From Chiloscyllium plagiosum (taxonomy: Eukaryota): DNA of 64,000 nt. Positions 2,246-58,845 of this stretch are shown piece by piece. Where the stretch lies: the NCBI RefSeq assembly GCF_004010195.1, contig NC_057722.1, positions 20,459,911 to 20,523,910 of the forward strand, read 5' to 3'. Both the position numbers and the translations under genes were made by a program. Within the stretch, counting starts at the first letter, position 1; the number at the start of each line of letters is the position of its first letter. The notes beneath the pieces were generated by a model. The model worked only from the letters and a program-made list of their open reading frames with translations. It had not been told where the DNA came from and did not search any database.

Positions 2246-2377
2246 TAGACTTTTTATTTCTGATGAAGAGTCAGGTGAAAAAATGGATAATGGCAGGTCC
2301 AAAAAGAAACAATCCTCCGTAACAAGTTCTTCACATACTGAACACTTCATGGATTGAACCATTGTGATCTGATAAAG
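2246..2377 (-). CDS. USP-family deubiquitinase A (USP18/USP47-like), coding exon 5 (fingers CxxC, LDLPLSI); gene continues beyond the left edge
   Basis: ttctatcttatag acceptor and gtaagt donor; 132 nt, phase 0/0; LYQITMVQSMKCSVCEELVTEDCFFLDLPLSIFSPDSSSEIKSL. Confidence 0.88.
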
Positions 2378-3482
2378 CTATAAGATAGAAGCCAATGAAC
2401 ACATAGCCCATATTCTGTCATTCAGGATTTAATTATAATATCAAAATAAACCTAATGTTTTAAATCTCATGTAAAAAAATCCTTATGTTTTATTGATTTG
2501 TTTGACAAAAAGAGTCAGTCTTTCTTTTTAAAAGAGCACAATATATTTTGAAGGGGCTGGGCAATGAAAGAGCATAAATTACCTGGGAGATAAAATCCCT
2601 CAGTCCTTCTGGTGCTCTCCCTCTCCCTCTCATTATGAAGAGTGCAGCACAAGGGTTAAAAGTCATCAGCACTACTGGCACTTTCAACACTTCCTGCATT
2701 GGTGGAGTCTCTGCTTACTCTTAAAAGGGCAGTGACCCACAAGTCCTGAAATGCCAATTCCTTAGTCTTCATATATCAAGAAACATGGCTAGTTCAGTGA
2801 GATCAGCCTCACAGAAAATTCATGCAGCTTAGAGACTGGTTTGCAAAGTGAATAATGTTGTACTAACTCTTTCCTGACAAACATCTGGCTCACATGGATT
2901 TGTAAGTATGGAAAATTCTTTATGACAATATGGTGTCCTCACTAAGGGGGTTGATGAATAAATGGATTGTCCCCCAAAAGTAAGGGCAGCCAATTGACCA
3001 TCCCAGCTCCTGCCAGATCTCGCACAATTCATTGGATTTCTTAAACTATAGGGCAAACATATGTCCAAGATGTCACCAATTGCATGGGTACTAGTCCCAG
3101 CCATTCAAATGAGGAGACCACCTGCTGACATATATGCTCTTTTCTCGAGCAAAAGTAGTCCTAGCAAAATTACAGTTCAGATATCTTTATCAACAAGACT
3201 TTTTACCCACGTTCATTCATAGTAAAAAGATAATGAGAACAGTTATTTAAATTTGTTGGTGATATGCCAAGAGAGAGAGTGAGAGGGAAAGAGACAGAGA
3301 GGTGAAATGCTGAAAAACAAACTGGCAAAAGGATGTACATGATGAGAAAGATAAAGTGAGGGAGAAGAGTTGAAGATACTTAGGAGGATGTACCATAAAA
3401 AAGCACAGAAAAATTGGGAAGACGGCAACACAAATAAGGACAACTTCAAAAATAGTTAATAGGTGTCATAGTTGAATTTTAC

Positions 3483-3571
3483 CTTCAGAATGTTATCCCC
3501 TTGGCCCACTTCAGCATTCAATTTGTTGATCAGATTGCGAAAAAATTCTTCAATATCAAGCTGTTTAAAGA
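3483..3571 (-). CDS. USP deubiquitinase A, coding exon 4 (QQD-box equivalent)
   Basis: ttcctttcaag acceptor and gtaaaa donor; 89 nt, phase 1/0; VFKQLDIEEFFRNLINKLNAEVGQGDNILK, in frame with flanking exons. Confidence 0.85.
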
Positions 3572-3765
3572 CTTGAAAGGAAGAATGCTTAGAAATTATG
3601 CTTAATTGAAAATACAAGCATATACAATATATTTAACATGTTGACCTGGATTCCTTATATGTTGGCATCAGTGAAAGCTAATAAGTATAAACTTCTGCCA
3701 AAGAAGAACTTTGCAGTTAATCCTTCAATAGTGTATGCACTGAAGTGTTAAACTAGATAATGGAT

Positions 3766-4095
3766 TTTAGATTAGATTAGATTAGATTACTTACAGTGTG
3801 GAAACAGGCCCTTCGGCCCAACAAGTCCACACCGACCCGCCGAAGCGCACCCACCCAGACCCATTCCCCTACATTTACCTCTGCACCTAACACTACAGGC
3901 AATTTAGTGTGGCCAATTCACCTGACCCGCACATTTTTGGACTGTGGGAGGAAACCGGAGCACCCGGAGGAAACCCACGTAGACACGGGGAGAATGTGCA
4001 AACTCCACACAGTCGGTCGCCTGAGGCGGGAATTGAACCCGGGTCTCTGGCGCTGTGAGGCAGCAGTGCTAACCACTGTGCCACCATGCCGCCCA
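3766..4095 (-). mobile_element. HE1-type tRNA-derived shark SINE with (TAATC)n tail
   Basis: Pol III A/B-box head (GGTGGCACAGTGGTTAGC...GGTTCAATTCCC on minus), V-SINE-like core, (GATTA)n tail at 3766-3790. Confidence 0.9.
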
Positions 4096-5089
4096 CCAAT
4101 GAGAGTAGGCTTGAACCAACAAATTTGGATTTCGAGTTGATTATATTCCCAATAAGATTAATCAGCAAATACATTGCACACACAGTCTCTTCATTTAAGT
4201 CACCAATGAAGATTTTAAATATGAAACCCCAGCACTAAGCCTTGCCATGATTGTATTTAATAGCAGAGCAGGCTTAATGTGTTTGTGTTTGTGGTCTTCT
4301 GAAAGCCCTATTGAAAATCTTGGTGGCTACCTTATATTGATTATACATCTTTATGTTCTTCCCCAAAAGATGTATTATTTTCTAAATCCACTCTATCAAT
4401 ATCTTCTATAATTTTAAACACCACTCCTAAGTCACTCCTCAGCACCTTTTCTTTGAAAGGAGAAGAGACAAACCTCGCCAATATTTTCCTAATACATTTG
4501 CTGACACTCTTAGGTATCACCTGTATGAAAGTAAATTGCTTCAGTCAAAGGGTTCTGAATATTTGGAATTCTCTTCCCGAGCAGATTGTGTATGTTTCAT
4601 TACTAAATACGTTTAAGGCATGGATTGACAAATTCTTTGCCTCTCATAGAATTAAATGTTATGGGGAGAGGCTAAAGATCAGCCATGATTGTATTGAATG
4701 TCAGAGCAGGCTTAATGGTAGCTGCATTTGTGGTCCTTTAACCAAGGACCTGATCTAGTGTAAGTTATTGATACTTTTAATACTTAATAAAAATACTCAA
4801 CGTTGTCCACACCAGTCCAATATCGACACCTCCAAATCATCATTTTAATGGCATACCACAAAGACCCAGAGCTTGGCCTTCACAATTTTTACAAAGAGAT
4901 GTCTTTGGAAACTTAAGCGTTGTTTTCTTTAATGAGTCTCTATTATTAAGTTAAAGAACCACCTCAATCACAGAAAATTAACAAATGGCCTAGGCAACAA
5001 TATTGTGAACAAGAGAAACAATTTTTTGATGGATAAATAAGTAGATTTATATATTTGGAAGTTGAATGAATGGTTTGCCCAATGCTTAC

Positions 5090-5205
5090 CATTCAGTTGC
5101 AAGCTCATGGTCAACTCATTCGTCCTTATGTACTTTTCTTCTTTGCTTTCCAACTTATTGAACAAGTTTTGTAACTCACGTACAAATGCCACATTTGAAT
5201 TTAAC
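5090..5205 (-). CDS. USP deubiquitinase A, coding exon 3
   Basis: polyT-cag acceptor and gtaagc donor; 116 nt, phase 2/1; LNSNVAFVRELQNLFNKLESKEEKYIRTNELTMSLQLN, matching the USP 'LQxLFxxL' helix. Confidence 0.88.
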
Positions 5206-6306
5206 CTGAAAAAAAAATTGTATTTTTACATTTAAGAAAATTGATTGCTTGAGCACCTAACAAACAGAATAATCTTGAATTTCCTAATGGAGAAATTCAT
5301 AATCTGTCAAAGTCTACAAATAGTTATCAGTCATCTTTCAAATAGAAATATATACTTGGGCATATAAATAAAGGAAGTAAAATTGCTTTGTTGATAATTT
5401 CAGTGGCAAAGGAAACCAGAAATCCCTTCTTGTATTCAAACTAATTTTTTGGATGAATTTTACCTCTAAACATATTCGTTACAATAAGCAGGATAAAACT
5501 TTATGCCATTTGATAGGAAGTCACAAAAGGTTTGGTAATGTAGAATGCTCCCATTCCAAGCTATTTTTGGAGTTAATTGGTGTGATGCTATGTGAACAAG
5601 AGTGTTGCATATTTTAACGAAAACAATACTCCAGCTAGTGCTTTGTCCAGTATTCCATTTTATATTTTGGATTAATTTGCACATTTTATGATATTTCTTG
5701 CCTTTTGTTGAAGTTTGAAAAGAATTAATTTGTAAGTCCTATTAAGAAAAGTATAATTTTTGTAATATTGCACTTTTGAAAGTGATTAGTGGCTGCAGAC
5801 AATATTCTCTCACTCTATTTTTAACACTCCATAACAAAGGGTGGTGAGGTGTGGTAATGGGACAAATTACATGTATAGTATGATTTCTCTACCCAGCACA
5901 AAAATGTTCTTTAAATTCACACCAACATTTCACCTAAACATTTTTCTTTTTCCTAGTTTAGAGCTTTTTGAATTTGTTGAGTAGTCAGTATTAAATGATA
6001 AGCAGTTTGAGATTATAGACTTGCTGTCATCATATTTCTCCTCTCCCATTTCACTTTCCAACTCACTTCCCCACTTAACCCCACTCCCTGACTCAGTGCC
6101 TGATTACTGAAAAGGTTTCAAAATGCACTGAACTCCTCTGGGTTTCAGTTACTCATGATTCACTTCACATTGAGAATTTTTGCCTCTCGTGTGGCCGCAT
6201 ACAATTGTTTCTCAATGTCTGAATAGAAGTTGACCAACTTTCCCAATTGTAGATTTTTCTAATGCTGAACCTTTACACAAACAGAATGAGCACTCCTAAA
6301 ACCTAC

Positions 6307-6403
6307 TTGTAAATGGACTGTTTAACTTCTGGAGTCAAGAACCATGTTTGAAGTAATGTGTTCAGAAAACATGTGGCTCCTTGATTGATGAGGCCCACAG
6401 AAG
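6307..6403 (-). CDS. USP deubiquitinase A, coding exon 2 (catalytic Cys box)
   Basis: catgcag acceptor and gtaggt donor; 97 nt, phase 1/2; [32 protein letters not shown] is a canonical USP Cys box (GLxNxGxTC[FY]xN). Confidence 0.93.
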
Positions 6404-6567
6404 CTGCATGAATACAGAGACAAAAGGGAAAAGTTGATTAGGAACACAAGAGTAATTTTCCTGCTTAGACGATCTTGACGATAACCTGCATTTATAAGAT
6501 GCTCCTCACATGTAGCGAGACATATCAAAGTGCTTTCTTAAATTGGATAAATATAGTAGGCACAATT

Positions 6568-6823
6568 TTAGATTAAATTCCCTATAGTGTGGAAACAGGC
6601 CCTTCAGCCCAAAGTGTCTACACCAACCCAGACCCATTCCCCTACATTTACCCCTGACTATGGGCAATTTAGCATGGCCAATTCACCTGACCTGCACATC
6701 TTTGGACTGTGGGAGGAAACTGAAGCACCCGGAGGAAACCCACGCAGACACAGGGAGAATGTGCAAACTCCACACAGACAGTCACCCGAGGCTGGAATCG
6801 AACCTGGGACCCTGGTGCTGTGA
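6568..6823 (-). mobile_element. HE1-type SINE (5'-truncated)
   Basis: Same core as 3766-4095 (CTGCACATCTTTGGACTGTGGGAGGAAAC...GTGCAAACTCCACACAGAC). Confidence 0.85.
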
Positions 6824-7124
6824 AGTTAGGAAGTTAGAAATTAGAAACAGTGTTTGAATACACATTTGCAAAAGCATAAAATTAGCTTGAAACAGATAAA
6901 TGAATGGGTCAGTCTTTAAAATTCATTTTTCTTAGAAAGTGCCTAAGCTTTCACCAACATGCAAACCTGTACAAAGAATTCAGTATTCTTAGAAAAAAGT
7001 GGTGAGTTTGAACGAAAAGTCCTTGTTGGAACACATAACTAGAAGCATGAAACTATACTAAGGAGCACGATCAGTGTGGGACTGAATCAGTAAAACGGAA
7101 GTGAACTGAGTTACTGGACATGAG

Positions 7125-7295
7125 TGTGTTGATGGAAAAGCACAGCAGGTCAGGCAGCAGCTGAGGAGCAGGAGAATCTATGTTTCAGGCTGGAGCCCTT
7201 CTCAATTCCTGATGAAGGGCTCCGGTCCGAAACGTTGATTCTCCTGCTTGACCTGCTGTGCTTTTCCAGCAACACACAGGCCTCACTTTCTTCCT
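7125..7295. mobile_element. Non-autonomous Penelope-type inverted-repeat element with hammerhead core
   Basis: GAAAAGCACAGCAGGTCAGG ... TGACCTGCTGTGCTTTTCC inverted arms; CTGATGAAGGGCTCCGGTCCGAAACG core. Confidence 0.7.
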
Positions 7296-7849
7296 CTGAG
7301 TTACTGGAGATGTTTGGAAATTAGGTTCTAAGTGGAAATTCAGTGTAAAGGAAACAAGGTTCCCTTAACTAAAATTACCTGCAAGAAATAAACTCTCCAG
7401 AGTGAGTTATCAGTTAGAAGAGGATAAAAGGCATGGATTGAGAGACTCACCCGCAGTGAGACCAGTGGTGGATATAGACAGGTTAAAGCGAGTGGGCAAA
7501 AACTTGGCAGATGGAATGTAATGTGATAATGTCAGGTTATGCACTTTGGCAGGAAAAATAGAGAAGCTGAATATTATTTAAATGAAGAAAGACTGCAGAA
7601 CAAAGGGCTTTGTTATCTGTTTCAACAAGGAGTTTTTTTTAAATCAAACTGACGTTTCTAAGAATAATGAATTCTCTGGACAGGTTTGCATGTTGGTGAA
7701 AGTTTAAATAATTTCTAACAAAAATGAATTTTAAAGACTAACCCATCTGTTTAAATATTTCAAATTAATTTTTATGCATATGCAAATGTGTATTTAAACA
7801 GTATTTGTACTGTTTATAATTTCCACGAATCACAAAAATCTAGCTTCCA

Positions 7850-9505
7850 AGTTCACTGAATAATAGGGAAGGCTTCCAGAATGTTGATTTTCATTTCAAA
7901 GGTAATGAAGTCCAGAAGTAGAGAGATTTTGCTAAAACTATACAAGGCATTAATTAGGTGAATAGTGTGAATGGCTTTGATCCCTTTATCTGAGGAAAGA
8001 AATACTGTACAGGCATTGGAGGGCAGTGACTTGACATTGCCTTTCTTGCAGAGTGCTGTTGATGCGAGGTCAGTAAATATATTCAAGGCTGAGATGGGCT
8101 GATTTTTAATCAGTAAGGGAATCAAGGTCTATGCAAAAAAGTAGCACACATCCTGCTGAATGGATGGAGTACAAGGGCCAACAAAGGAGCAACAACTACT
8201 CAAGGAATTATGACAGGAAACTTGCAAGGGATATAAAATTCAGTAAGAAAAAAATGTATAGTTACATAAAGGGAAAATGGGTCATCAGGAACAATGTTGG
8301 CCCACTAAAGACCGAAAATGGAGACACTCCCATTGACTGTGGGGAAATGATAGACATGTTGATTATTTACTGTGCCTCAGTATTGACTATAGAATAGGAA
8401 GATAGCTTACTGGAAGACCAGAAGAAATTAATAGTGGATCAGGCCAGGGACTAAATGATATTGAAGAAAGTAAAACATGGATAGTGAAGACATGAAGTTA
8501 AATAGCATAGATAGTAAATAATAGGTAAACAGTGGCAAAAACAAAAACACAGGTACAGGCGAATGTTAAGAGTTTGTGAGTCCATTCAGTATTCTAACAA
8601 CAGTAGGGAAGAAACATTAATTGAATTGAAAAGTTACAAATCTCTGGCATCTGATGGTTTCCATCCAAGAGTGTTAAAGGAAGTAGCACACATTATAAAT
8701 GCCCAAACTAGTTGAGTCATCCATCTGGATTAGAAAATTGCACATCACTCACTTTTTAAGAAGTACGAAAGAGGAAAACTCCAGAATTACAGACCAGTTA
8801 GCCTCACATCGATGGCAGAGAAAGTGTTGAAGTCTATAATGAAGGATGGGATAACGGAACACTGTGAAAATGTTCAGTTAATCAGGGAGGGCCAGCATGG
8901 ATTCATATATGGCATTTATATCTACAGACAGGAATTGAAGGATACAGATACTATGCTGTGATTAGACAAAACTCTGATCAGACTTCACTTGGAGTGTTGT
9001 GAGCAGATTTGGGCAGCACACCAAAGGAAGTATATATCAGCTTAAAGGGAGTACAACTTAGGTTTACAAGAATGATATCTGGACCTCGGGGATAAAGTTA
9101 TAAAGAGAGATTATACAAATTAGGCCTGTTTTCTCTAGCATTTAGAAGGTTTATGGATATTCTCAAGATATAAACAGGAAGGGACAGGGTAGATAAAGAT
9201 AAACTATTTCCACTGCTTGAGAATTCCAGACCTCGGGGGCATAATCTAAAAATTAGTGCTACTCCATTAAGGAGAAATATTAAAAACAATTTCTGCATAC
9301 AAAGGGTGGTAGACGTTTGAAATTCGCTTCCAGAAATAGTAGCAGATATAGATTGGGTTAATAATTTTAAATCTGAGATGAATAATTTTTTGTTAAACAG
9401 AAGTGTTGAGGGATATCGGCCAAAGACAGTTATATTGAGTTAAGCCATGATCTCACTGAATGGCAAACAGACTTGGGAGGTCTATTCATGTTCCTGTATT
9501 CCTAT
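7850..9505 (+). mobile_element. Degenerate CR1 LINE ORF2/3' fragments
   Basis: Fragments encoding FHPRVLKEV, NYRPVSLT and QHGF; CR1 3' end with TTCCTGT/TTCCTAT repeats. Confidence 0.75.
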
Positions 9506-9939
9506 AAAGAGTAATGGCAGGTGATTGATATGAAATGACATAATGACCAATCAAAAGTCTGGTCAGATAACCTGATATGCCAGAGGGTACTTTGAAATAA
9601 AGTTAGCTCTTAGTAGCTTAAAAGGCCTTGACCACAATCCATCCAATCTAATTAAATTTAAATCAATGATGAATTGTCTGCTTAAAGAGAAATATAAACA
9701 CATGTGAACTGAAGCCATTACAAGTTGACCAAGGTTGAACCTGAGCATTCAAGGATACGTGGGATCCAGGAGGAGAACAAGCTGGGAAAAGGTGGTGGGG
9801 TAGCTCTATTAAGTAAGGATGACATTACTATAAAAGTGTGAGATAATGATAGTTCTAAAGATCAAACTGTAGAATCATTTTGGATAGAGGTTAAATAAAA
9901 CCAAAAAAGTTAGGGAATCGCTTGTGGGAGTAGTTTTTA

Positions 9940-10082
9940 AGGAGAAAGTGAGGTCTGCAGATGCTGGAGATCAGAGCTGAAAATGTGTTGCTGGAAAAGC
10001 GCAGCAGGTCAGGCAGCATCCAGGGAACAGGAGAATCGACGTTTCGGGCATAAGCCTGAAGAAGGGCTTATGCCCGAAACGT
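9940..10082. mobile_element. Penelope-type non-autonomous element with hammerhead core
   Basis: ACGTTTCGGGCATAAGCC-TGAAGAAG-GGCTTATGCCCGAAACGT palindrome; CTGAAGA...GAAAC core at 10056-10082. Confidence 0.7.
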
Positions 10083-10588
10083 GTAGGTGTTTGGCTGAAG
10101 ATTTCTGCTGGTTTGTGCCCATGCTAGCTAGAACGTCCTGGAATATTTTGGACATGAAATGTGTAAACTCTGACCGATTTCTGAGAGCACACTACACCGA
10201 GTGACGTGACGGGCTCGTCAAATCTCACACCTTTTGCGCTGAAATGGTTCTTAGTGGAACAGCCACATCATGGGTAGAGCTCCAAAAAGACCACTCAGCA
10301 TCACCTCTAAGGCAATTGGTTATGGCTTCCACGGTTGCCAATAGCAACTGACAGCCACAGGTTGTAGCAGAATGAAAACTGGACACGGATTTCCCATGCT
10401 TGCTTCTCAATCAGCACTGTCTGAGGGCTGCGGTAATTTTAATCAGTAGGTGCCAGAAAGTTTATGTTTGTTGTGCTAACAGCAACAGGGCTTAACCTCG
10501 ACGGCGATCCCATTTTTTTTCAGGGATCATCCGGTCTTGAGCTTTGGTGCAGACTTTGCGTATTGTAGGTGTCTCCATATTGCAGTCC

Positions 10589-10601
10589 AGTTTCAGCTTT
10601 C
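10589..10601 (+). promoter_or_regulatory. ISRE/IRF-like site in intron 1 of USP-A
   Basis: AGTTTCAGCTTTC (3-nt spacer variant), 60 nt into intron 1. Confidence 0.35.
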
Positions 10602-10660
10602 AAAGTACACGAAAGAATGCAATTACAATTTTACCGTCATGTCACTGACCTGAAACTTAC

Positions 10661-10766
10661 GTTTTCCTCTGCAAATGTTACCTGTAAATCTTTCCATGTA
10701 TTTTCTTCTTTCCTCCCTCATGCTATCTGCTGTCATTGACCTGTTCTTTTTTACACAATTGCCCAT
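10661..10766 (-). CDS. USP deubiquitinase A, probable first coding exon
   Basis: ATG at 10766 (in-frame upstream ATG at 10853 also possible); MGNCVKKNRSMTADSMREERRKYMERFTGNICRGK; gtaagt donor in phase 1 joins the Cys-box exon in frame; CpG-rich region with CCAAT at about 10873-10878. Confidence 0.7.
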
Positions 10767-11245
10767 CGGCGTAGCTGCAAACAAAATACAGGTAGCAGCT
10801 GCACATATCCAGAGCACAGATGCCGCCTGCTCGCTTGGAAAGCGACTTGTCATCCGCTACATTAATTCGTCAGATTGGTTGGGCGTTAACACAAAGGTGA
10901 CCCGAGCTCCTTACCGGTGTTTCCAGAGGGATCAATGCCGCTAAGATGAAACGCAAATAAGAAAAGTCTGTACAAAGGCCACGTGCCAAACCGAAAAATC
11001 AACAAGATAAACGTGATCGAGTATCTGGCTGCTCGTTGAACCAAAGTGAGCCACCACATCATGAAACGTTTCACTCCCAAATCTTGCTACGTTTGACCAA
11101 GTAACTTTTTTTCACCCCTGAATAAAACAATCTCTTTTATTATCAGAAATATTCATAATTTCCCGCTTGCAGTGGTGCAAAGTGTTTAACTATCTGTTTC
11201 AGCTTGCCAAGTTTCTCTTAGGCAGAGGAGAGTTCAGAGAGGTTA

Positions 11246-11256
11246 AGTTTCACTTT
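11246..11256 (+). promoter_or_regulatory. ISRE upstream of USP-A
   Basis: AGTTTCACTTT (ISRE consensus AGTTTCNNTTT), about 480 nt upstream of ATG 10766; identical 11-mer upstream of the Ubl gene. Confidence 0.5.
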
Positions 11257-19200: not shown

Positions 19201-19219
19201 AATGAGACTTTTTATTTAC

Positions 19220-29521: not shown

Positions 29522-29989
29522 CTAATGAGAACCTCTTTGTTTCCAGACTGGTATTGAATTTTGCCTTGGTGCCATCTCTTTTGCACAATAACCATACCAT
29601 GACCCTTGTCTGGTTGCCTGGCACGTAGCCGTCAGCTCAAGGCAGACAAAGCAAAATTCGACAAAACACCTACTGCATCTAATATTTTTACAACCAAATT
29701 GGTTGTGCTCAAGCAGCCTGCCACAAGTAGGACAGGCCCGAATAGAAGGGCAATTTGTCACAACAGTATCTGGGAGGTTAATTAATGGGCAGGTACGCAG
29801 TGTATCCAATTCTATGTTGGTGCATCCTTCATTGTCACATCGATCAGAACGTGGCCCAGGTCCTTTCCATGGTTTCAGGCATTGCCAGCAGAATTCAAAA
29901 ACACTCTGTTTCTCAGCAGTACAGATTACGCAGTGGACACTTAGGTTAGCCAGGTCTTTGCGTTCAACAAATGTGCTGCATCCTGGACA
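29522..29989 (-). CDS. RBR-type E3 ligase, exon 4 (IBR + RING2/Rcat, stop)
   Basis: tttaccactag acceptor, phase 0; 468 nt; CPGCSTFVERKDLANLSVHCVICT..FEFCWQCLKPW (IBR) and RACPTCGRLLEHNQFGCKNIRCSRCFVEFCFVCL (RING2)...WKQRGSH*. Confidence 0.93.
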   Translation of the reverse strand, partial: CPGCSTFVERKDLANLSVHCVICTAEKQSVFEFCWQCLKPWKGPGPRSDRCDNEGCTNIELDTLRTCPLINLPDTVVTNCPSIRACPTCGRLLEHNQFGCKNIRCSRCFVEFCFVCLELTATCQATRQGSWYGYCAKEMAPRQNSIPVWKQRGSH

Positions 29990-32083: not shown

Positions 32084-32181
32084 CTGATCGAGGAGACTTC
32101 GACACCAACTAGTCAGTGAATTTGGATCAACTGCATGTTTGCAGGACATTTCTGCTCGCAAAATATTAGGATCATCATCTC
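32084..32181 (-). CDS. RBR-type E3 ligase, exon 2 (degenerate RING1)
   Basis: tttcag acceptor and gtaagc donor; 98 nt, phase 1/0; GDDDPNILRAEMSCKHAVDPNSLTSWCRSLLDQ. Confidence 0.92.
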
Positions 32182-35172: not shown

Positions 35173-35260
35173 CTGTGATCTCATCCTTCCTTTTCACAAA
35201 TTTCAGCGTACGGTCGTCTGGATCGTAACGCTTTTCTATTTGTTGTCGTAGCGTTGTCAT
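35173..35260 (-). CDS. RBR-type E3 ligase, first coding exon
   Basis: ATG at 35260; MTTLRQQIEKRYDPDDRTLKFVKRKDEIT; gtaaat donor, phase 1. Exons of 88+98+174+468 nt give an uninterrupted 275-aa ORF. Confidence 0.88.
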
Positions 35261-35300: not shown

Positions 35301-35324
35301 ATATAAATTTGACTGGAAAGCCCC
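35301..35324 (-). promoter_or_regulatory. NF-kB site plus TATA-like element upstream of the RBR gene
   Basis: GGGGCTTTCC on minus (35324-35315) matches GGGRNYYYCC; followed by TTTATAT, about 45 nt upstream of the ATG. Confidence 0.6.
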
Positions 35325-43766: not shown

Positions 43767-43888
43767 CTAGTCCCCTCCACCAGGCAGACGTAACACCAAG
43801 AGGATTGTTGATTTGTCCGTGATGCTGTATTCAGAGAATTTTTTGTTATCTTCCAATTGTTTGTTGGCAAAAAGAAGGCGCAGATCAC
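43767..43888 (-). CDS. Ubiquitin-like modifier, exon 2 (C-terminal half, LRLPGG-GD-stop)
   Basis: ccatcgcag acceptor, phase 1; [40 protein letters not shown], aligning to ubiquitin [36 protein letters not shown]. Confidence 0.93.
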
Positions 43889-44210
43889 CTGCGATGGCTA
43901 ATCCACCAAAAGAAACAGAAACGGAGAAAAATGAATAAACCTAAAAAAAAACCTCAAGAACATCCTAAATACTATGGTTAGTTATTATTCCAATTTTAAC
44001 CTTAAAAGGATTTAGACCCCGCATCCCTTCGGTAAGTTAAATTCTAAAGTTTGGGTTAAGCGCTTTAAAACCCAAAGATTTGAATCGGTATCATGTAGTT
44101 TAATTCTCATTTTGTACCACCAGGTGATATGATTGTCCACTCAATTCTTTAGCTGATTACTGCTATCACTTTCAAAAGCCCACTCTCGTGCTCTGTTATT
44201 GCTCACGTAC

Positions 44211-44355
44211 CTGCTTCTCCCGGCACTTTCTTCAATAACAATTCCTTAAACTTGAGAATGGGCATCGCATTAAATTCTGCCTCAGTGTGTGAAACATCAA
44301 CAGTCATTTTTTCCCCTTTCAACCCTACGACAAACACTTGAAAGATTTTCCCCAT
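44211..44355 (-). CDS. Ubiquitin-like modifier, exon 1 (N-terminal beta-grasp half)
   Basis: ATG at 44355; MGKIFQVFVVGLKGEKMTVDVSHTEAEFNAMPILKFKELLLKKVPGEA; CAG|gtacgt donor, phase 1. Spliced product is 88 aa; from memory it resembles teleost zgc:194655-like Ubls (not searched). Confidence 0.92.
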
Positions 44356-44438: not shown

Positions 44439-44450
44439 AGTTTCACTTTT
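44439..44450 (+). promoter_or_regulatory. ISRE upstream of the Ubl gene
   Basis: AGTTTCACTTTT, 84 nt upstream of the ATG; GAS-like TTCCTGAAA at 44507-44515. Confidence 0.65.
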
Positions 44451-47832: not shown

Positions 47833-47846
47833 AGTTTCGCTTTCTC
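47833..47846 (+). promoter_or_regulatory. Perfect ISRE upstream of USP-B
   Basis: AGTTTCGCTTTCTC matches AGTTTCNNTTTCNC, about 170 nt upstream of ATG 48013, in a CpG-rich region. Confidence 0.75.
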
Positions 47847-48012: not shown

Positions 48013-48207
48013 ATGGAGGTATCCCACACATCGGGGCACAGCAAGAGGAATGCAGGGAGAAGGGAGCAGAGCCGGGCTACAGTGAGTTCCACTTCCCAGG
48101 TCCCCACCAGCAGACCGGGCTCCGGCCCCAGGAGTGTTTCTGTAAACCGGCACTGCACCCCGTCACCGCCGGCGCAGACACAGCTCAGGAGGACGGGAAC
48201 AGCCCAG
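48013..48207 (+). CDS. USP18-like deubiquitinase B, probable first coding exon (disordered N-terminus)
   Basis: gcaATGG Kozak; MEVSHTSGHSKRNAGRREQSRATVSSTSQVPTSRPGSGPRSVSVNRHCTPSPPAQTQLRRTGTAQ; CAG|gtaaca donor, phase 0; no homology support for this exon. Confidence 0.55.
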
Positions 48208-48397
48208 GTAACAGCAGAACTCGTACTTTCTACTGTATTTACCCACACCGCCCCGCCCTCCATTTCTCGTTATTATTGGTCATGTGACGCGTCAAGATAA
48301 ATGTTTTCCTGTTATTACCATCTTACTGACAAATTTTTATCGCCCCGCCTTTCCTCATAATCTGGAATTGTCTCTGTGAAGATACACCCAGAAAAAC

Positions 48398-48577
48398 TGA
48401 TTTGGAGGAGCTGGTGTTGGACTGGGGTGGACCAAGTTAAAAATCACACAACGCCAGGTTATAGTCCAACAGATTTATTTGGAAGAATTAGCTTTCAAAG
48501 CGCTGTTTCTTCTTCAGGTGGTCGTCGCAAATAAACCTGTTGGACTATAACCTGGTGTTGTGTGATCTTTAACTTTG
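48398..48577. mobile_element. Palindromic hammerhead-family element
   Basis: AAAATCACACAAC.CCAGGTTATAGTCCAACAG ... CTGTTGGACTATAACCTGGTGTTGTGTGAT inverted arms. Confidence 0.75.
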
Positions 48578-50690
48578 CCCAGAAAGAATGTCTACCATGG
48601 TAATCCCTCTGTCAAATTTTGTTTGACAGCATGGAATATTTCATATTTATAAAAGACACCCTGACAATACACGTCATTGTTATAGGGTAGGCATGATGGG
48701 CACCAAAACAGACAGCTGCCAACGTGGGAAATAGTTCTGTAACTTAACAGTCAAATACAGATAACAGTTGGTGGGAAGGTGTTTGTGGGGTAGTGGTACT
48801 GTCACCATCTCTAAGCCAGGAGACCACCTGCTGAATAGATTGATTAGAAAATAACAAGAGTTGCTGGGTTGAAATAGTACTGCTAACTGCACCTCATTGG
48901 CCAGAAGGCTGCATGTGGGCAAAAAGGTGTGCTGCAGCATTTTGATTTCAGCAGGCAGCTAATTGTTCACGTCTAGAGACAAGAAATTTGTCTCATAACG
49001 TTCAAAATTTAGAAAATTCTGATGAGGCTCAAATGCCAGTGATAGAATAAAGGGCATTTTTCATCTCATGATTTCAGAGATGTTTCAAAGGACATTACAT
49101 ATAAACAATATCTTGACATGTTGTAATTGCCATAATATTTGGTGTATTTACTCAGTCATCTGCAAGAAAACTAGATACAAAGACAAGTTGGTGGAATTTA
49201 CGTGGTCCAGACAAACTGCAATTCCAGTTATCAATCACATTAAATTATGAGCAATATGGTGAAATCTTTCAATCTTGTGATGATTCTGTGGCTTTAAAAG
49301 GTTATTTTGTCCTTTTTTAAGAAAGAGGGGTTTTAAGATAGTGGTGCTGAGCTATTTGGTGAAAAGGCAGTGAGCAGCTAGTCCGATCTTGGTTGTGTTT
49401 TGAATGTTGGAACAATAGAAGCAGCCTGATTGGGGGTGGTCAAGCCTCACAAATCCAGTATCTTTAGTTTTAACTTTCAGTGGCAGAAGCTGCTGGGGTT
49501 TTGTAACACTATACATCTCTCTCTGCTACAGCTAAAAGCTGGAGTTCTGTCTTTCTCAGAATTGTCTTTTGATGTTCTTTTCTCCTGCATTGGAGAATTA
49601 CATGTGAGACAATCTGTTTTCTAAATTTGTGTTTTGCCAAGGCTGTGTTTATGGGATGTTGCTATACTGGAACAGGTAATTAGTAATAGTTACTGTATCA
49701 ATTGTTCTGTTAAGTTTTCCAATAGAGTTAAGTTATTCCAAGTTCCTCTTTCTTTTGTTGCATTTTAACTATGGTGTTTGAATAAATTGTGTTTTGCTTA
49801 ATGGCAAGTAATTTGAACATTCAAATTGCATCTGGAACACAGCACCTTGCATTTACCTTAGAAAATAAGAAAAGTTAGGGTCTAGGCTTCCTTCTTAATA
49901 TATTTTTGAAGAGGTCTGATCTGTTCCATAACAATCTGAGGAAGTGATTTTTACATATAGTGGCAACTTTGTGTTTAGTTGCTCAAAAGTGCCCTCTTCA
50001 CAAGTATTCTTCACCCCTATCTTTCCTTAAACTTGTTTTCATATCTAAACCGGAACACTGACACAGGCAACACAAATGAGCAGTATGTTAATTTTTTAAA
50101 GACAGGTGTTGCCAGAGTTGCTGTGATTCTCCAGCACTTCCTGCTTTTGAGTCTTACAAAACCAAAGCACAGAAGGAGATAATATGGTCTGTCAAGTTTA
50201 TCCATCTCTCTGCAAGAACAATTTATCTAGTCTGACTTCAGTAATCATGCCTGACTTTGTTTAAAAGTCTATGGTAGCAGAATTTAGCCCAGTACAATAG
50301 CTGAAGGGTGTAGGGTCAGGGAGCTGAAAGGCCTAACATGCTAAACTAATGCCAGTGTAAGAATTTGGTTTGGCAGGTAAATTTAAATATTCTACTTGTA
50401 GTTATAATGAAATTAAAGCAGTTGTAAGAGTTTGCTTTGTTTCATACCTCAATGATTTGCAAAACAAGCTTCTAAATGTGTGTATGACTTTTCTCGTAAA
50501 TTATTTTTATCCTTTACTTAAGTCTTGTTTCATAAATACATTGCTGGCAAATTTACTAATCTTGCTTGATTTTGTATAAAAGATCTATAGGAGCAGAATA
50601 TAGACCAAAATGAAGTTTTATAATGGATTCAGTCTATATCATATTATATTCTGTTGACCTAAAATATTTATCTGTTCTATTAACTAAAAG

Positions 50691-50825
50691 CAAAGACTTC
50701 CAAATAGCTTATACGATGAAACAAACAGGAGAGAAGTTGGATCTGGAGTTTTCAGCTATCAAATGTATGATCAAGTTGGATGTCATGTAAACAAGAATCC
50801 CTGTTTACCCAGAAAGGAATCTGCG
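50691..50825 (+). CDS. USP-B, candidate coding exon 2
   Basis: aag acceptor and GCG|gtaagc donor; 135 nt open, phase 0/0; QRLPNSLYDETNRREVGSGVFSYQMYDQVGCHVNKNPCLPRKESA; no homology support. Confidence 0.45.
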
Positions 50826-51747
50826 GTAAGCACGAGCAATATTTTTAATTGACTTATTGAATTAACAATATACACTTTCACTTTTTTGGGCTTATTTGAA
50901 AAACACCATCTTGTTGCAAGGACTATCTGTGCTTTATATTGTTGTGATAATTCTTAGAGAAATTAGGTTACTTAAATCTATAATAGTGGTTTGACTTATA
51001 AAGAAGCAACTGTTTACAAATTAATAGAAATTATTCTTACATTGGATATTTTCTGGAAGGAACTCAAGTTCCATACATTCAAGAATGGTGAGTGAAAAAT
51101 ATGTTGAAACAATCTTAAAAATATCAAAGGTAATGATTTCATCAGTGCAGTTAAGAATTGTTTGGTTGATGTATTTATAAATTGTGCAACCTTGTTGGAG
51201 AATGACAATATCCTCCTTCTTAAACACTATTAGAACCCTTTCTGATTTTTCATTTTTTTAAAAATTGTTCTTTTATTAATTTTGGTTTGAAGCTGTGAAT
51301 TGGTTGCTGTGAGCTAAAATGACTTTTGGACTGTGGGTCAAAAGCTTGTATTCAAAGGTAAATAAAGGAAAACAAGCTTTTGTTTATTGCTGAGGCAAAG
51401 CCTGGCAGCTAATTGCAGGTTGGTTCCTGATCAAAAGGTTTGGCAGATGCTTCGTCACTGGGGAAGAATATTATATTTAAACAGATAGCAAGTTAGTAAC
51501 TATTCAGTTCTGTACCTGGGAATTGTTTCCAGCAAATCTGGAAATGACCTTATGCTCAAGCAGATGTTGAACGGTAATTGAGACCTTGTGCAGGAGATGA
51601 TCAGTCTGTCAGGGATTATCGAGTTTGACTTGGGTTTTGGACTAAGTTTTAAAAAAAAAGCTACTAATACTACAGCATGAAAATTTGACAGCTCCCTGCC
51701 TAACCTCCCCTTAGCAGTGCTTGCAAGCTCAGAGAATAGAAAACTAA

Positions 51748-52045
51748 GGCGGCATGGTGGCTCAGTGGTTAACACTGCAGCATCACAGCACCAGGGTCCC
51801 AGGTTTGGGCGACTGTGTGTGTAGAGCTTGCACATTCTCCCTGTGTCTGCGTGGGTTTCCTCCAGATGCTCCGGTTTCCTCCCACAAAGATATGCAGGTT
51901 CGGTGAATTGGCCATGCTAAATTGCCCATAGTGTTAGGTGCATCATTCAGAGGGAAATGGGTCTGGGTGGGTTATTCTTCGAAGGGTCAGTATGGACTGG
52001 GTGGGCTGAAGGGCCTCTTTCCACACTGTAGGGAATCTAGTCTAA
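51748..52045 (+). mobile_element. HE1-type SINE
   Basis: Head, core and tail. Confidence 0.88.
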
Positions 52046-55000
52046 ATTATAATTATTACTGCTTAAGTGAACTGTAAATGTGACCCTGGTGGACATCTCC
52101 AAAAAGTTGATGAAGAAGTCTTCACCTATGCTTGTGGAACAATGCATCATGAAAATCACTGTTAGGTAATCGGCCAGTTTTGTTATTTTCCTTGATTTAT
52201 CCCGAAACTGTGTTTTCTGCCTGTCATTTGTGTGAATGGGACTGAAAATAGGGTTTATGCCTTTGATAAATTAGACTATTTTGTTGTTTAATTTTTGCTC
52301 TGCTGAAGTTAACATGTTGTTAATAAATTGCTAAGAGTTTGGCAAGCTACACGCTGGTGGCTGGAATTGGTTACTCATAAAGTCTGGGATTGATTATTCA
52401 AAAATTCCACTCGGAACCATTAGGATCAATTTTGACAGTTTTCGAAGGCTTTAATTTTATAGTGTTATGAATACAAAGGTAAGAAGGCTGATTTTGTTTG
52501 GCTGTCTGTCTCCATGTCGTAACAAAAGACAAATTTTATGATCCCCTGTTGAATACAACTCCTTTCTCCTTCTTGTACTGAACCACAGATGAATCACAAG
52601 GTTACATTCAACCAGATAGATTCCTCAGCATTTGATCCACTGTGTTCTTCATTGGAGTTGTAGAAAACTAATCCTGTTTTCTTTCAGTGCCCTGAATCTC
52701 CATCCGCTTTCTAATATATATCCAATATTTAGTTTTGAAAATTCCAATCGCCACTATTCTGTGCTTAAATATCCCAATTCCTAACAATCTGAAAAAGAAG
52801 TTTTTTTTACCGTTTAAAAAAAATTTACCCATGAAATGTGACTGTTTTTAATAGACCAGCATTTATTGACCATTCCTAATTGCCTGGGAGAATGCAGTGG
52901 AGAGCTTCCTTCATGTATCGCTGCCATTCTTGGATGTGGAGATACCCTTGGTGCTGTTAGGAAAAAAGTTCCACGACTTTGACCCAGTGATGTTGTTATG
53001 AGCAGGCTCAATTTTTTAGAGTTTCAGATAGGAAACTCCAAATTGTTAATCTCTTGGGTGAGGAAGAATGAACTGATTCTATTCACCATCCCTCTGGTTA
53101 ATTGCATCAAGGTTAATTTTTAAAAAAAGGATCCTTTTCTTTGAGGATACCTTTCTCCCCAACCAGATTTACGTTCTAAAAGGAGTTAATTTGCCATGCT
53201 TTCTTGAGTTAATGAGAGAGTGAGTTTATTGTTTTTTAAGCACAAGAAGAAATTATAATGGAACATTTTACAAACAGATTAGGCCAAGATGTAAATCTGA
53301 AAAAAATTCATAAAGTCTGAGTCATTTGTGAAGAAGAGATAGTGAGAAGTTGTGATTGTTACATGGGAAGATACTGATTGTGCTGACATTGGTAGTTGAA
53401 CAATTAATTTTCTGATTTTGAGTTTACGGATTGAATCTAGTTATATTTTCCCTGGTTTATTTCAACAGTGGCTAGCACTCCAAGTTAGAGAGTGAGTTTT
53501 CTTTTCTTTACCTGCAGTGTAGAGGTGTGTAATGGCTGTTGTCATACTGTAACCTTTGCATCGCACAACTGTACATACTTGTGGGTCAGGTCACTAACAT
53601 GCACAGAGCAAAGGTCGCGGTTAGTTTTTAATCCCTGCAAGACTAAAACATAACGAGAGGTAGTCAGCTTCTTCTTATTGTTCCATTTTTTTAGTCTTTC
53701 TTTTTGAAGTTTTCCTAGCTCTGTACAGGTGTGGGCACACCATGAGTCTATACAAGAATCTGAAAGTCAGTGATTGAATTTAAACCTGCAGTTATCTTTT
53801 ACTATCAGCTGTGGTGCCCTCATTTAATAAACAAACATATGCTGAAATTATAAGTTTAATAATTCTGTAAGCACTTCAAAGTTTTGATCTGTCATCATGA
53901 CACAATGAAGAGACCTTTTAAAAGACAGTTTAAAATTGATTACCTCCTGTTCTTGGCTCCATAAGCAGAAGAAATACTTTTTCTTTCTTTACATAGAGAA
54001 AATAGATCTGGAATTTCATACTACCTTCACAAACGTAGACCAGGATGTGCTATCAAAATAACAGTAAGGCTGTTGGCACTAAGGTTGCTCATTAGTAACT
54101 GATACTGCAACTTCAAGGGATTGGCTGATGTGTGATTAAGTATCAATGTCTAAAAGTAACTTTCCCAAGTTTCATCTCTTTGCCATTAGCTTACTTTAAA
54201 CAGCAGCTCATCCTTATAGCTTGGCTGTTTCTTTTATCTTATTTGCTTATAGAGACTTGGGTTTCATTTTACAAGTCTAAGTTTAAATTTTATCAGCCTC
54301 TGAGCAAAGAGGGCAACAGTGAGGCAGTTCAGAAAATATAGCTAGTTTTAGGGAAAATGCTGGTTGCAATTAAGAGTTGTAGACCAGGAGCCTTGATGCG
54401 AAGTGGGTGCAGTTGCAGAGACAATGTGAGGCAGCTGAGAGCAAATGGTGGCACTTGCCCTTGAAGAGCAGAGAAGGTCATTAACTTGCTTCCTGCACTG
54501 CTGGGAGTTCTTCCAGAATATGCACGCTGCGCTGACCCAGTTGCCAACTTCACCCATACTGGCAGGGTCTGGTGGCGTGATCTCTTTTCTGTTGAGGAAG
54601 GAGAACAGTCTTACTCTCCAATACTCTGCCAAGTGTGACCTCCAGATCCCTGATGTTAAATCAGTGTGTTAAGTTGCCTTTGTCACTATTCTTTGGGGTA
54701 AGTCTTCCCACGTTGCAACCATGAATGGAAGTTCCTGGGCTTACAGCGTTTGACCTGTGGTTTAAACATGATGCTGCCAGCAGAAATCGTAGTCAGTCCC
54801 TGCAGCATTGCGTACTTCCACTGCTGGTGAGTGCGAGATAGCATGAGAGTAACTGGAGAGTTGTAGTGCATATATAATGAGCTCCGCAGCAGAGAATTGT
54901 GGGACAGAGCTTGCCAGAGCTCAGAGTTAAAACATGCATTAAACTCAGAGTTAACACTTTCCCAATGTTTTGATAAAATTCAATCATGGGTACTCATTTT

Positions 55001-56895
55001 ACATGGTGATAAATATCAATGACTGCCATTTGAGCTCTAGGTAAAAAAAAGTATGGTTTTTCAGGCCTAGTTGTATAAGAAGTTATTTTTGGATAATACA
55101 AATGCAGCAATATAACTCAATTGGATTTTACATAAGATTTTCATTAAATCATTGTATCATGAAGAAAATAGATAACTATGCCTACAGAGAGCAGTTTGGA
55201 GAAGGAGGCTAGCTGATTTCTCAAAAAGAACATAACTCATAGAATCATAGAGTAAAGACTTAATTCTGCACACCCATATGTCCCGGAGCATTCAAAGACA
55301 CATTGGGCCAGATTTTCAATGTAGCTATGGGAAAATGATATGCAAGTCAATTTCATGTCCCAATCGTGTGCCTAAACTGGAAACATAAGTGGTTAAAATC
55401 GGTCAGCTGGTGACCTCAGTGTGCAGTCAGAGATAGCAAGCTCCTCTGGGAGCTGACTGTATGAAGTCAGCAGTAAAAGCAGCTGACAAAGCAGGTGTTA
55501 TGGACTGCCCGTCCTAAGAGGAATGGGCCTAGAGGATGAGATGGTGGGAAGTGGCCCCTTCAGTTAACCTTTTAAATATAATTTCAGTAAAACTCTTCAT
55601 TGGTCCTGTGGTGACCAAAATGTACACCAGCCTGTTCAGGATTCCTAAAATCAGATTTCAGAATTGCTTTCTTGCACATTCCAGCTTTGTACTATGCTCC
55701 TAAAGGAGTTTAAGGGGCTATTAACTGGCAGCATGACAATTTAACAAAGAAACTGACTGGTTGACTGTTTGTAAATCAAATTTGGAATCATTCTGCATGT
55801 GCCAAATTCTGAGGCATGGTTCCTTAGAATACTGTCAGGGCCGTTTGGTGTGTATCGATGTATAGCCTAGTATCTAGAACTCTTTAATTTATCCTCAGCT
55901 TGCAAATCCTTTTGGCAAGGATAAGATCTTCCCTTTCTTGTATTTAACTTCTTTGAGTACCCAAAGAAATAGTGAGGTCAATATAAGTCAGTGTTGCACA
56001 AACTGTTGCACAAAATATTAGTTAAGAAACTGAGCTGTCAAATAAATACAGTGGCTGCAAGAGCAGGTCAGGCATTGGGAATCCTGCAGTGAGTAACTAA
56101 TCTTCAGAGTCCTGAAAATCTGTCCACCACAAGACAGCAAACACTCAAGAAACTTACCACTATTCAGGACCAAGTAGCTGCTTGATTGGCATCAAATTCA
56201 CAAATATTCATTCCTTTCGCCACCAACATTCAGTGCAATGCAAAAATTCACTGAGAGTCTATACACAGTGCCTTCCACATCCGCAGCCATGACCACCTAG
56301 AAAGAAAATGGCAGCAGATACATGGGAATACCACCATCTGCTAGTTCCCTTCTAAGCCACTAACCATCCTGACTTGGAAATATATCATTGTTCCTTTGTC
56401 ACTGGGTCAAAGTCCTGAAACTCTCTCCATTATGGTGTTATTGGTCTGCCTGAGCCAAATGCATTTCGGCAGTTCAAGAAGGAAGCTCACCACCACCTTC
56501 TCAAGGGAGATTAGGGATGGGCAATAAATGCTTGCCTGGCCAGCAAACCAAAACTGAAGTTTTAAAACTTCTAAGCCAGTAATAACAATGAGTATGTCAT
56601 TGTTAGATCAACAATTTTTTTTTCTGGAATAGCACACTAACAATAATAACTTAATGCTATGTTAGGCCTATTTTTGAATGTGCAGAATCGTGAATATATC
56701 ACTCATTGATATCTTTAATATATGTGGTACATTTGTTTAATCTGGTTGTACAATCCCAATGTCTGAGTTTGCACACCTGAATTTATTGCTCCATTTTATT
56801 TGTCATGGAAATGCTTATTAGCATTAATCTATCATTCGCAAAACTTGAATGAATTTGCATGAAGGATGATCAAACTTCGCATCCATCTCTTTCAG

Positions 56896-56962
56896 GAAAG
56901 AAAACCAGAAAGAGGTGAAAGTCTGCATTCTTTTGAAAATGCAAATCGTTTAACAGATTGCG
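56896..56962 (+). CDS. USP-B, candidate coding exon 3
   Basis: catctctttcag acceptor and G|gtaacc donor; 67 nt, phase 0/1; ERKPERGESLHSFENANRLTDC; supplies the phase needed by the Cys-box exon. Confidence 0.55.
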
Positions 56963-58307
56963 GTAACCACAAACAAAACATTGTTGACGCAGAAAATCAA
57001 CAAAAGTCACTCAGAAGTTCTCATAACAATGAAAGTAAGTGCATGCACAGAAATTTTATGAATGTAGAATATTTTTTAAAAATAATGTTAAAGATGTAAC
57101 CAAATGAATCTTAGGAGTATTAATCGACTTCAACAATCAAAGAAAGCATTCAGTTAGGTGCCCCATAACAATTAAACAAATCTTCCTTGCGTCTTTTCCT
57201 TACCTAGTTGATGCTCCTGAAAATGTGAAAATTTATTAAGAGCTTCCATCTTATTGAAGCTTCAAGCCAATTCATATCCAAGAATCTGCTTTTAAAAAGT
57301 ACATTTTGACATCTGTGACAAATTGCAGCACGGTAGCTGAGACAAACCATTCTAAAACAACACTACAACTAAAATAATCCAAACATTGTTTGAAAAAAAT
57401 TCTCCAATCCTCCACTGTTGACCAATCCTTTAAACAAATTACAGATCTGCAAATTTGCCAAACATTAATCTGTTCTTCTCTGGGCTATATGCTATCTGAA
57501 TACCACATTGTGTTGAAATCTGTCTCTTAATTTTGAGATCTATTGTTTCAAGGTTATTGGGCAAAGATATTTAAATAGAAGCAAAGTACTGAGGATGCTG
57601 AAGATCTGAAGTAAAAAAAGAAAACATTGGAGAAACTCAGTAGGTTTAGTGGCAACTGCTGGGACAAACAGAGTTAACATTTCAAGTCATTATGATCACT
57701 TGGGAACAGGCAAAACAATACTTCACACCATCCTCTGCAGCAGGTATGATAAGAAAAACCTGTCTCTTCATTAGTTGCAGTTTTGTCCCACAGGGACAGA
57801 TGAGAATTCGTATTGCCTATGGAGTCAGCTGGAATAGCTTAAACCGTATTGGTTTTATTTTCAATGAATATTGCCTGTATTACTAGATTGTTAGCATATG
57901 CATCTGGTACAACATGCAACATCATTAATGCATCTCTCGTCTGTTTGGGTAAAGATATACAAATTGCTGTGTGGAATTTTCTGGTTCGTATGTTCTTGGG
58001 AATGCACCATGTAGAACTGACATTCAAAGCACCAGCTTGTCTCAATAATACTGCTCTAATCTGAATCAAATGATTGTCCAACTGTGAAATGTATTCATAT
58101 AAATTAGTCTAATGCTCCATTGAAGCACCGAAGAAGTACATTACCAAACAAATTAAACTTATCTACTTGTACAGAAGACACGAATAGTAACAAATGTAAT
58201 GTTTCTACCCTGTGACTCATGCAATACAATTTTAACAGACAGACAGCTATTTCATTTTTTTTTGTAGAGACTTGTGCAAATTGACTACTATGATTCAAGT
58301 TCTACAG

Positions 58308-58578
58308 GACAGCATGGTGCTCGGTGATTAACAGTGCAGCCTCACAGTGCCAGGGTCCTGGGTGTGATTCCACCCTTGGGTGACTCTCCGTGTAGAGTCT
58401 GCACATTCTCCCAGTGTTTGTGTGGGTTTCATCCCACATTGAAAAGATGAGCAGGCTAGGTGGATTAACCATGGGAAATGCAGGGTTACAGGGATTTGGT
58501 GGGATGCTGTTTAGAAGGTTGGTGTGAACTTGATGGGCTGAATGGCCTGCTTCCACACTGTAAGGATATTATGATTCT
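58308..58578 (+). mobile_element. HE1-type SINE (diverged)
   Basis: Head and core recognisable. Confidence 0.8.
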
Positions 58579-58748
58579 CATCAAGACAGGGGAGGGGGAG
58601 AGGGTCACAAAATTTGAGTTAGTTGGATGTGATATTATGAGACTTTGTTTTTATCTTTATTGCTTGACTTGCTGAGTGGAGGAAATAACTTGGGGGTGGG
58701 GGTGGGTTCATCACAAAGAAGTGGGTAATGTATTATTTCTTTTCATAG

Positions 58749-58845
58749 CATTTGTGGCACTCATCAATATAAGGAATAACTGCTGTGTAAATGCCCTTCT
58801 GCAGACCTTGTTTATAATTCCAGAATATAGAGACCTACTTTTGAA
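58749..58845 (+). CDS. USP18-like deubiquitinase B, catalytic Cys-box exon; gene continues beyond the right edge
   Basis: ttatttcttttcatag acceptor and gtaagt donor; 97 nt, phase 1/2 (same as USP-A); AFVALINIRNNCCVNALLQTLFIIPEYRDLLL; the CC motif recalls USP18 (GLHNIGQTCCLNSL). Confidence 0.88.

Follow-up and report, generated by a model that had tools for sequence, protein, structure and literature searches.

The list of conjugated ubiquitin-like modifiers (Ubls) of vertebrates is short and has been built from human genes. The closest described system to the one considered here is that of ISG15, by which we mean ISG15, UBA7, UBE2L6, HERC5/ARIH1 and USP18, and in which a Ubl precursor with Gly-Gly and a tail, promoters with interferon-stimulated response element (ISRE)-like sites, an inducible ligase and USP18-family proteases come together. 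Two related clades have been named by Grimholt et al. (2025; PMC12234341), of which we rely on the parts consulted: ARIT, a clade of RING1-IBR-RING2 (RBR) ligases found in teleosts, reptiles and monkeys and not in humans, and 'USP18-like', a USP47-like sister clade of the ubiquitin-specific protease (USP) USP18. According to these parts, after virus or interferon (IFN)-gamma salmon ARIT.1 rose by log2 6.30, 4.49 and 13.45 and salmon USP18-like by log2 1.99, 2.26 and 4.93. On salmon chromosome 7 USP18-like lies at 23.86 Mb, ARIT.1 at 24.02 and ARIT.2 at 24.10 Mb (157 kb from USP18-like to ARIT), with USP18a 22 Mb away and USP18b on chromosome 17. Here we analyzed a stretch of 64,000 nucleotides from the shark Chiloscyllium plagiosum (contig C13, NC_057722.1, positions 20,459,911-20,523,910; about 28% repeat by self-comparison), hereafter the window, in which a Ubl gene lies among an RBR gene and two USP genes. 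Our leading explanation, tentatively held, is that these genes form part of a dedicated, interferon-induced ubiquitin-like conjugation module of fishes. Coordinates are window positions throughout, negative values lying to the left of the window and values above 64,000 to its right.

Four host genes were modelled in the window, USP-A, RBR1 and Ubl on the minus strand and USP-B on the plus strand, all with GT-AG junctions and no internal stops. This is the order and orientation that an earlier note had read from the same DNA, and it is now confirmed by gene models and, for RBR1 and Ubl, by the public Chiloscyllium proteins XP_043557929-931, which match our models and are annotated and uncharacterised. 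Ubl has two exons (91 amino acids, aa) and RBR1 four (275 aa), while five exons of USP-A and three of USP-B fall inside the window; the starting exon of USP-A and exons 1 and 2 of USP-B were taken from splice phase and open frame only. The cluster exceeds the window, as the 384 kb around it hold two RBRs, three USPs and one single-domain Ubl, with RBR2, the rest of USP-A and a third protease, USP-C, lying outside. The genes are thus clustered, as the word 'operon-like' in the earlier note implied, but they have separate promoters and occupy both strands.

The Ubl has a ubiquitin-family domain (Pfam ubiquitin, E 4.5e-9), is single-copy in this genome and belongs to the zgc:194655 family, which accounted for 82 of 101 search matches (8000 candidates scored); where named, these came from sharks, rays, chimaera, coelacanth and ray-finned fishes, and no named tetrapod was among the 82. 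We aligned 64 family rows, leaving out 14 extended or irregular models and four fragments without the C-terminus. Gly-Gly was present in 64/64 rows and was followed in all 64 by a variable tail of 1-56 residues; Pro stood directly before Gly-Gly in 60/64, Arg occupied the ubiquitin-72 position in 61/64, and the ending LRLPGG was found in 46/64 as against LRLRGG in 1/64. The 14 irregular models likewise terminate in Pro-Gly-Gly plus a tail. An invariant Gly-Gly followed by an unconstrained tail characterises Ubls that are processed and conjugated. With Pro where ubiquitin has Arg74, general deubiquitinases should be impeded and dedicated ones favoured. The shark Ubl is 35% identical to ubiquitin (84 aa) and 32% to the C-domain of shark ISG15-like protein, and in our tree 23 family rows fell together on one side of a 99/99 branch that set them off from ubiquitin and the ISG15-like domains. 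By its single domain, its LPGG ending (LRGG in ISG15), its two exons and its separate clade the Ubl is, on sequence grounds, neither ubiquitin nor ISG15, as the earlier note had maintained. It is clustered with candidate enzymes, whereas two-domain LRLRGG ISG15-like genes sit on contig C25 and an unplaced contig of the same genome; it is therefore not a stand-in for a missing ISG15. By analogy the system would resemble that of ISG15 in its working, yet it is not ISG15.

Some further observations concern these modifiers. The ISG15-like genes are at least five, intronless and of two distinct types (C25:15.35-15.42 Mb and C93721). Long tails after Gly-Gly were noticed in Ubl copies of some sharks and teleosts (P0211, P0260, P0292, P0303, P0353, P0354, P0357, P0362, P0291), and one Xiphophorus model carries two long-tailed domains in tandem. 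No Ubl-RBR fusion was found among 242 Ubl-bearing proteins scanned, a public fusion model (P0375) looking like a mis-joined prediction.

RBR1 was predicted from an alignment to fold as RING1-IBR-RING2 (predicted local distance difference test, pLDDT, 89), and at E<=0.001 this model matched 36 PDB entries; the listed ones are RBRs, the nearest of them 13-20% identical. The catalytic Cys220 was conserved in 120/120 RBR relatives, with Cys-Lys-Asn in place of Cys-x-His in 108/120. RING1 was compared in 97 of these 120 rows, zinc ligands being judged from sequence: the first CxxC, before C-x-H, occurred in 0/97 and C-x-H-x2-C-x2-C in 0/95, while the ligands of the second site were kept. The one-zinc-site RING1 is thus, as far as aligned ligands tell, a family-wide variant and not the canonical two-zinc RING1, and with the first CxxC gone, E2 binding may differ from that of other RBRs. 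RBR1 shares with Parkin, HOIP and HOIL-1 as well as RNF216 the fold and the catalytic Cys, and differs from them in RING1, in Cys-Lys-Asn and in having no flanking domains. By its sequence it belongs to the ARIT clade (zebrafish si:ch211-212k18.15), being RBR-only, about 270 aa long and without transmembrane segment, and clustering with teleost, reptile and mammal ARIT; in PMC12234341 the alligator row begins like our record P0064, and the start of the salmon IBR equals that of P0056.

RBR2, the second ARIT gene, terminates in a CaaX-like motif shared by 7/120 family rows. In the tree it grouped with one ray copy, one sevengill-shark copy and all tetrapod rows (support 98/96; 86/85 with three long-branch outgroups, when the RBR1 side was unresolved), and RBR1 grouped with fish, coelacanth and lungfish rows. 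Tetrapod ARITs are of the RBR2 type, not the RBR1 type, and no tetrapod Ubl was among the 82 matches, which would fit a joint loss of Ubl and RBR1 in tetrapods. Four divergent ARIT-like genes, 35-42% identical in the last exon, were also noticed at C43:15.93 Mb, C17:57.52 and 57.73 Mb and C99069:10 kb; the three inspected (3/3) keep the Gly-Cys motif at the catalytic position. An ARIT record labelled Lampetra planeri (P0121) nests with percomorph fish and is probably a contamination, so we make no claim for jawless vertebrates.

Fifty-five species had a contig record for the Ubl, 20 of them also for the RBR, and the two shared a contig in 19/20. Since many of these contigs represent entire chromosomes, adjacency matters more: accessions or locus tags of Ubl and RBR were consecutive in nine species, namely Chiloscyllium plagiosum, Hemiscyllium, Mustelus, Latimeria, Scleropages, Megalops atlanticus, Albula glossodonta, Albula goreensis and Collichthys, the pair lying on contigs of just 31.7 kb in Scleropages and 97 kb in Albula glossodonta. 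In Mobula hypostoma and Megalops cyprinoides the accessions are close and non-consecutive. The linkage of Ubl and RBR has been kept in cartilaginous and ray-finned fishes and in the coelacanth.

The promoter regions would fit a common interferon control. The ISRE-like pattern AAA[GC][TC]GAAA[CG] had 16 matches in the 384 kb, of which 5/16 fell no more than 500 bases upstream of the six cluster starts (0.13 expected, binomial 1.5e-7); with only the three homology-anchored ATGs counted, 2/16 did so (p=0.002). Five of the six starts have such a site, RBR1 being the exception. These values are to be read with the fact that the pattern was chosen after the three sites of the window had been seen; RBR2, which lies outside it and has ISRE-like and gamma-activated site (GAS)-like motifs upstream, is the one independent match, as the strong ISRE-like site of USP-C (at 107,818) is not independent because the motif helped to pick the first exon of that gene. 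Two GAS-like sites lie farther upstream of USP-B, this motif being common (0.65 per kb). All four motifs listed in the earlier note are where it had placed them (Table 1), and its expectation of linked and induced genes agrees with the RBR and USP18-like genes of salmon in the consulted parts of PMC12234341. Its suggestion of NF-kB control of the RBR gene is not supported: the single weak kB-like motif compares with 6.6-11 expected per window from shuffles, and it falls within the coding part of one public RBR1 isoform model.

The proteases appear to be of two kinds. They were compared by single exons and shared residues. USP-B continues to the right of the window at 67.8 and 68.6 kb and breaks off at an assembly gap; its missing exons were found in order and phase, with His and Asp intact, on the unplaced contig C98424 (513-16333), which, from the order and phase of its exons, apparently carries the gene's second half. 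Its Cys box CCVNALLQ is identical in salmon and zebrafish USP18, as shown in the alignment within the consulted parts of PMC12234341. Its probable His exon matched USP18 first at 32.1 bits and USP47 at 31.6, a margin of 0.5 bit, and the Cys exon alone matched USP28 best, weakly. We consider it likely that USP-B is USP18 or a close paralogue, and for this reason it probably serves ISG15. The proposal of the earlier note that both USPs serve the new Ubl is not supported, and this genome has ISG15-like genes on another contig. USP-A and USP-C form a pair, 75% identical over the Cys box, and the His exon of USP-A found USP47 as its best PDB match (E 1.4e-5); USP-A and USP-B agree in the phases (1 and 2) of the introns flanking the Cys exon. 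USP-A and USP-C probably represent the USP18-like clade and are better candidates than USP-B for handling the Ubl. Elsewhere in the genome a pair on C32 presumably corresponds to USP8/USP50 and a USP at C13:39.8 Mb to USP13, not USP18, going by motifs; the UCH scan overlooked the C13 exons of USP-B itself, and another USP18 may therefore exist. The MGNC start of USP-A (10766-10755) resembles a signal for myristoylation and palmitoylation, and together with the CaaX end of RBR2 it hints at membrane targeting.

We further modelled the complex of Hemiscyllium RBR1 with the mature Ubl of C. punctatum, which scored 0.85 as against 0.01 for the best of three controls, the runs agreeing in at least 95% of contacts and partner pLDDT being at least 90. 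The mark reached is one that 51/78 solved and 2/108 mismatched microbial pairs, and 71/105 solved and 2/126 unrelated eukaryote pairs, also reach. In the predicted complex the Ile44-equivalent patch of the Ubl packs on the RING1-IBR helix (97-116), and its last strand (81-86) pairs with IBR strand 126-129; E104, A108 and R130 at the interface are conserved in 95/97, 88/97 and 97/97 RBR rows. A pose on the helix of RING1-IBR and on the second IBR strand is also that of Parkin, HOIP and HOIL-1 as well as RNF216, and in the parts of PMC9834252 consulted this is the allosteric ubiquitin site of solved RBR-ubiquitin complexes, activation by ubiquitin or Ubls being common to RBRs.

Taken together, a dedicated module would work as follows. 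Interferon, acting through the ISREs, would induce the cluster, as it does the relatives of RBR and USP18-like genes in salmon. A protease of the cluster, most likely USP-A or USP-C, would trim the Ubl precursor after Gly-Gly, and a shared E1 (UBA1, UBA6 or UBA7) together with an E2 from another locus would then charge the mature Ubl. RBR1 would accept it on Cys220 and hand it on to substrates; in addition, Ubl in free or conjugated form could dock on the predicted RING1-IBR site and activate RBR1. USP-A or USP-C would then take the tag off substrates, and USP-B, probably USP18, would act from within the same locus on ISG15 and in interferon feedback.

Several points weigh against this proposal. 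Conjugate, thioester and cleavage of the Ubl are all putative, RBR1 is without an ISRE-like site within 1 kb, and no induction data for the Ubl turned up in the parts of published datasets searched. As the earlier note had stated, neither an E1 nor an E2 turned up within the cluster or close to it: none of the 101 best-scoring E2 candidates and none of the 32 best-scoring E1 candidates lay on C13, an E1 gene on C17 being presumably UBA2. Tetrapods retain ARIT, yet no Ubl of theirs was found among the 8000 candidates scored, so some ARITs probably work without the Ubl; lungfish have RBR1-type genes and no Ubl among the family matches. In Anguilla the Ubl and RBR are on different contigs, and six further species with the pair on one contig have non-consecutive accessions (such numbering is seen in Callorhinchus, Polypterus, Heterodontus, C. 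punctatum, Xiphophorus, Rhincodon and Larimichthys), which neither confirms nor refutes adjacency because numbering is not always positional. As to the synteny of Ubl, RBR and USP raised in the earlier note, the Ubl-RBR part held across fishes, while USP linkage outside this shark comes from salmon alone, in the consulted parts of PMC12234341. Finally, the predicted pose coincides with a known allosteric site, so the high score may reflect structures already known to the model, and it cannot tell the Ubl from ubiquitin.

One alternative, which we regard as unlikely, is that the genes share interferon control and nothing more, the RBRs using ubiquitin or ISG15, the USPs removing them and the Ubl being handled by enzymes encoded elsewhere. 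The likeness of USP-B to USP18, the location of the ISG15-like genes on C25 and the proposal of ARIT as a possible ISG15 ligase would fit such an arrangement, as would the survival of ARIT in echidna, elephant and monkeys (both from the parts of PMC12234341 consulted), where no Ubl was found among the 82 matches. However, an adjacency running from sharks to coelacanth and percomorphs would exceed what shared regulation usually needs, and the ARITs that survive in tetrapods represent the other paralogue. It is still less likely that the Ubl is activator rather than cargo, that is, that Ubl, either free or attached to targets by a different ligase, occupies the RING1-IBR site and turns RBR1 on for ubiquitin or ISG15 transfer, as phospho-ubiquitin does with Parkin. 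The predicted pose adds weight here, as the single Ubl copy was modelled onto the helix and IBR strand that form the allosteric site in the consulted parts of PMC9834252, and the interface is conserved; but the donor site has similar geometry according to the same parts, and one Ubl copy cannot fill both, and a purely free activator needs no Gly-Gly in 64/64 rows with a disposable tail. That the cluster arose by chance, that its genes are decayed or that it is an artefact of assembly is very improbable and for the Ubl-RBR pair largely refuted, for despite local disorder of the assembly around USP-B and USP-C the frames are open, the catalytic residues intact, the window within one gap-free stretch and the linkage repeated in other species.

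Table 1. Positions of the cluster genes and promoter motifs (window coordinates)
Feature	Positions	Strand	Basis or remark
Ubl exon 1 (zgc:194655 family)	44211-44355	-	Matches to shark orthologues, frame check
Ubl exon 2, C-terminal end	43767-43897	-	Frame check, family alignment
RBR1 exon 1	35173-35260	-	tblastn to shark orthologues, frame check
RBR1 exon 2, RING1 without first zinc site's cysteines	32084-32181	-	tblastn, frame check, alignment
RBR1 exon 3, RING1 end and RING1-IBR helix	31303-31476	-	tblastn, structure model, frame check
RBR1 exon 4, IBR and RING2, catalytic Cys220 in GCKN	29522-29989	-	Pfam IBR; Cys220 conserved
RBR2, second ARIT gene	-41577 to -50768	-	Same four-exon plan
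USP-A first coding exon, inferred, starts MGNC	10682-10766	-	Phase fits exon 2, open frame, CpG-rich
USP-A Cys-box exon (NQGATC)	6307-6403	-	Pfam UCH E 3.2e-5; 75% identical to USP-C exon over 28 aa
USP-A exon 3	5090-5205	-	GT-AG, frame kept
USP-A QxD exon	3483-3571	-	Pfam UCH E 0.015; USP-C exon match E 3e-7
USP-A fingers exon	2246-2377	-	Gene runs on left of window, with His-box exon near -19,100
USP-B first coding exon, inferred	48013-48207	+	Phase, frame; CpG-rich
USP-B exon 2, inferred	56896-57034	+	Phase 0 to 1 joins exon 1 to Cys exon
USP-B Cys-box exon (CCVNALLQ)	58749-58845	+	Pfam UCH E 7.5e-4
USP-C, third protease	about 107,600 to 81,600	-	First exon partly picked by its ISRE-like motif
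ISRE-like site	11246-11256		490 bases upstream of inferred USP-A start
ISRE-like site	44439-44449		94 bases upstream of conserved Ubl ATG
ISRE-like site	47833-47843		About 170 bases upstream of inferred USP-B start
kB-like site, weak	35315-35324	-	64 bases upstream of conserved RBR1 ATG

The last exons of USP-C lie at -84,041 to -81,105 on the plus strand, some 165 kb away from the rest of the gene, on the far side of the cluster and in opposite orientation, which suggests that the block between two 500-base gaps, at -91 kb and +69.6 kb, is flipped in the assembly. A self-similar stretch at 70,100-74,900, probably a tandem duplication, lies just right of the gap that breaks USP-B. Pfam revealed no further host genes in the window among 137 of 617 non-repeat open reading frames (ORFs) and, separately, 29 ORFs of which about 27 were non-repeat, a weak negative as these scans overlooked two true exons; an extra gene considered at 49-55 kb had no Pfam support. 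The cluster flanks gave retroelement domains and one weak DUF match (147/1640 ORFs), with broken long terminal repeat (LTR)-retroelement or provirus-like stretches bearing RNase H and integrase domains at about 119-127 kb and 210-213 kb, right of the cluster. An exon about 137 kb left of the window (L036:2165-2491, minus strand), without a Pfam hit, resembles an ephexin/NGEF-type gene.

The ligase and one protease clade were thus already named in 2025; the modifier, its adjacency, the altered RING1 and the paralogue split we did not find in print. The consulted parts of PMC12234341 carry no remark on an adjacent Ubl, the USP18-like linkage, the RING1 zinc site or two paralogue groups, and '194655' had zero matches in the portion of its supplement file 1 covered. 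Neither 'zgc' nor 'ch211' appears in the main text, as far as covered, of 10.1101/693333 and PMC13030082, and the Ubl and RBR gene names had no match in the covered portions of the supplements of PMC13355688 and PMC10300353. A mostly open-access literature, in which colon-bearing names may escape a search, yielded no paper that names zgc:194655 or ch211-212k18.15 or that describes the cluster.

On a wider scale it is possible, if less than probable, that jawed vertebrates had a Pro-Gly-Gly modifier system with its own one-zinc-RING1 RBR and USP18-family proteases, clustered and interferon-induced for more than 400 million years, that tetrapods lost the system along with RBR1 and retain USP18 and the CaaX-tailed second ARIT as its remnants, and that USP18 arose in this cluster. 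The cluster would offer a setting for the origin of USP18, and the Ubl would be a candidate partner for ARIT, which is among the most strongly induced genes in the table of PMC12234341, as far as consulted. Small proteins and existing cell lines of zebrafish and salmon make the question directly testable. If the proposed module is real, it would be an antiviral tagging route kept in fishes, not found in tetrapods and invisible to human-centred work.

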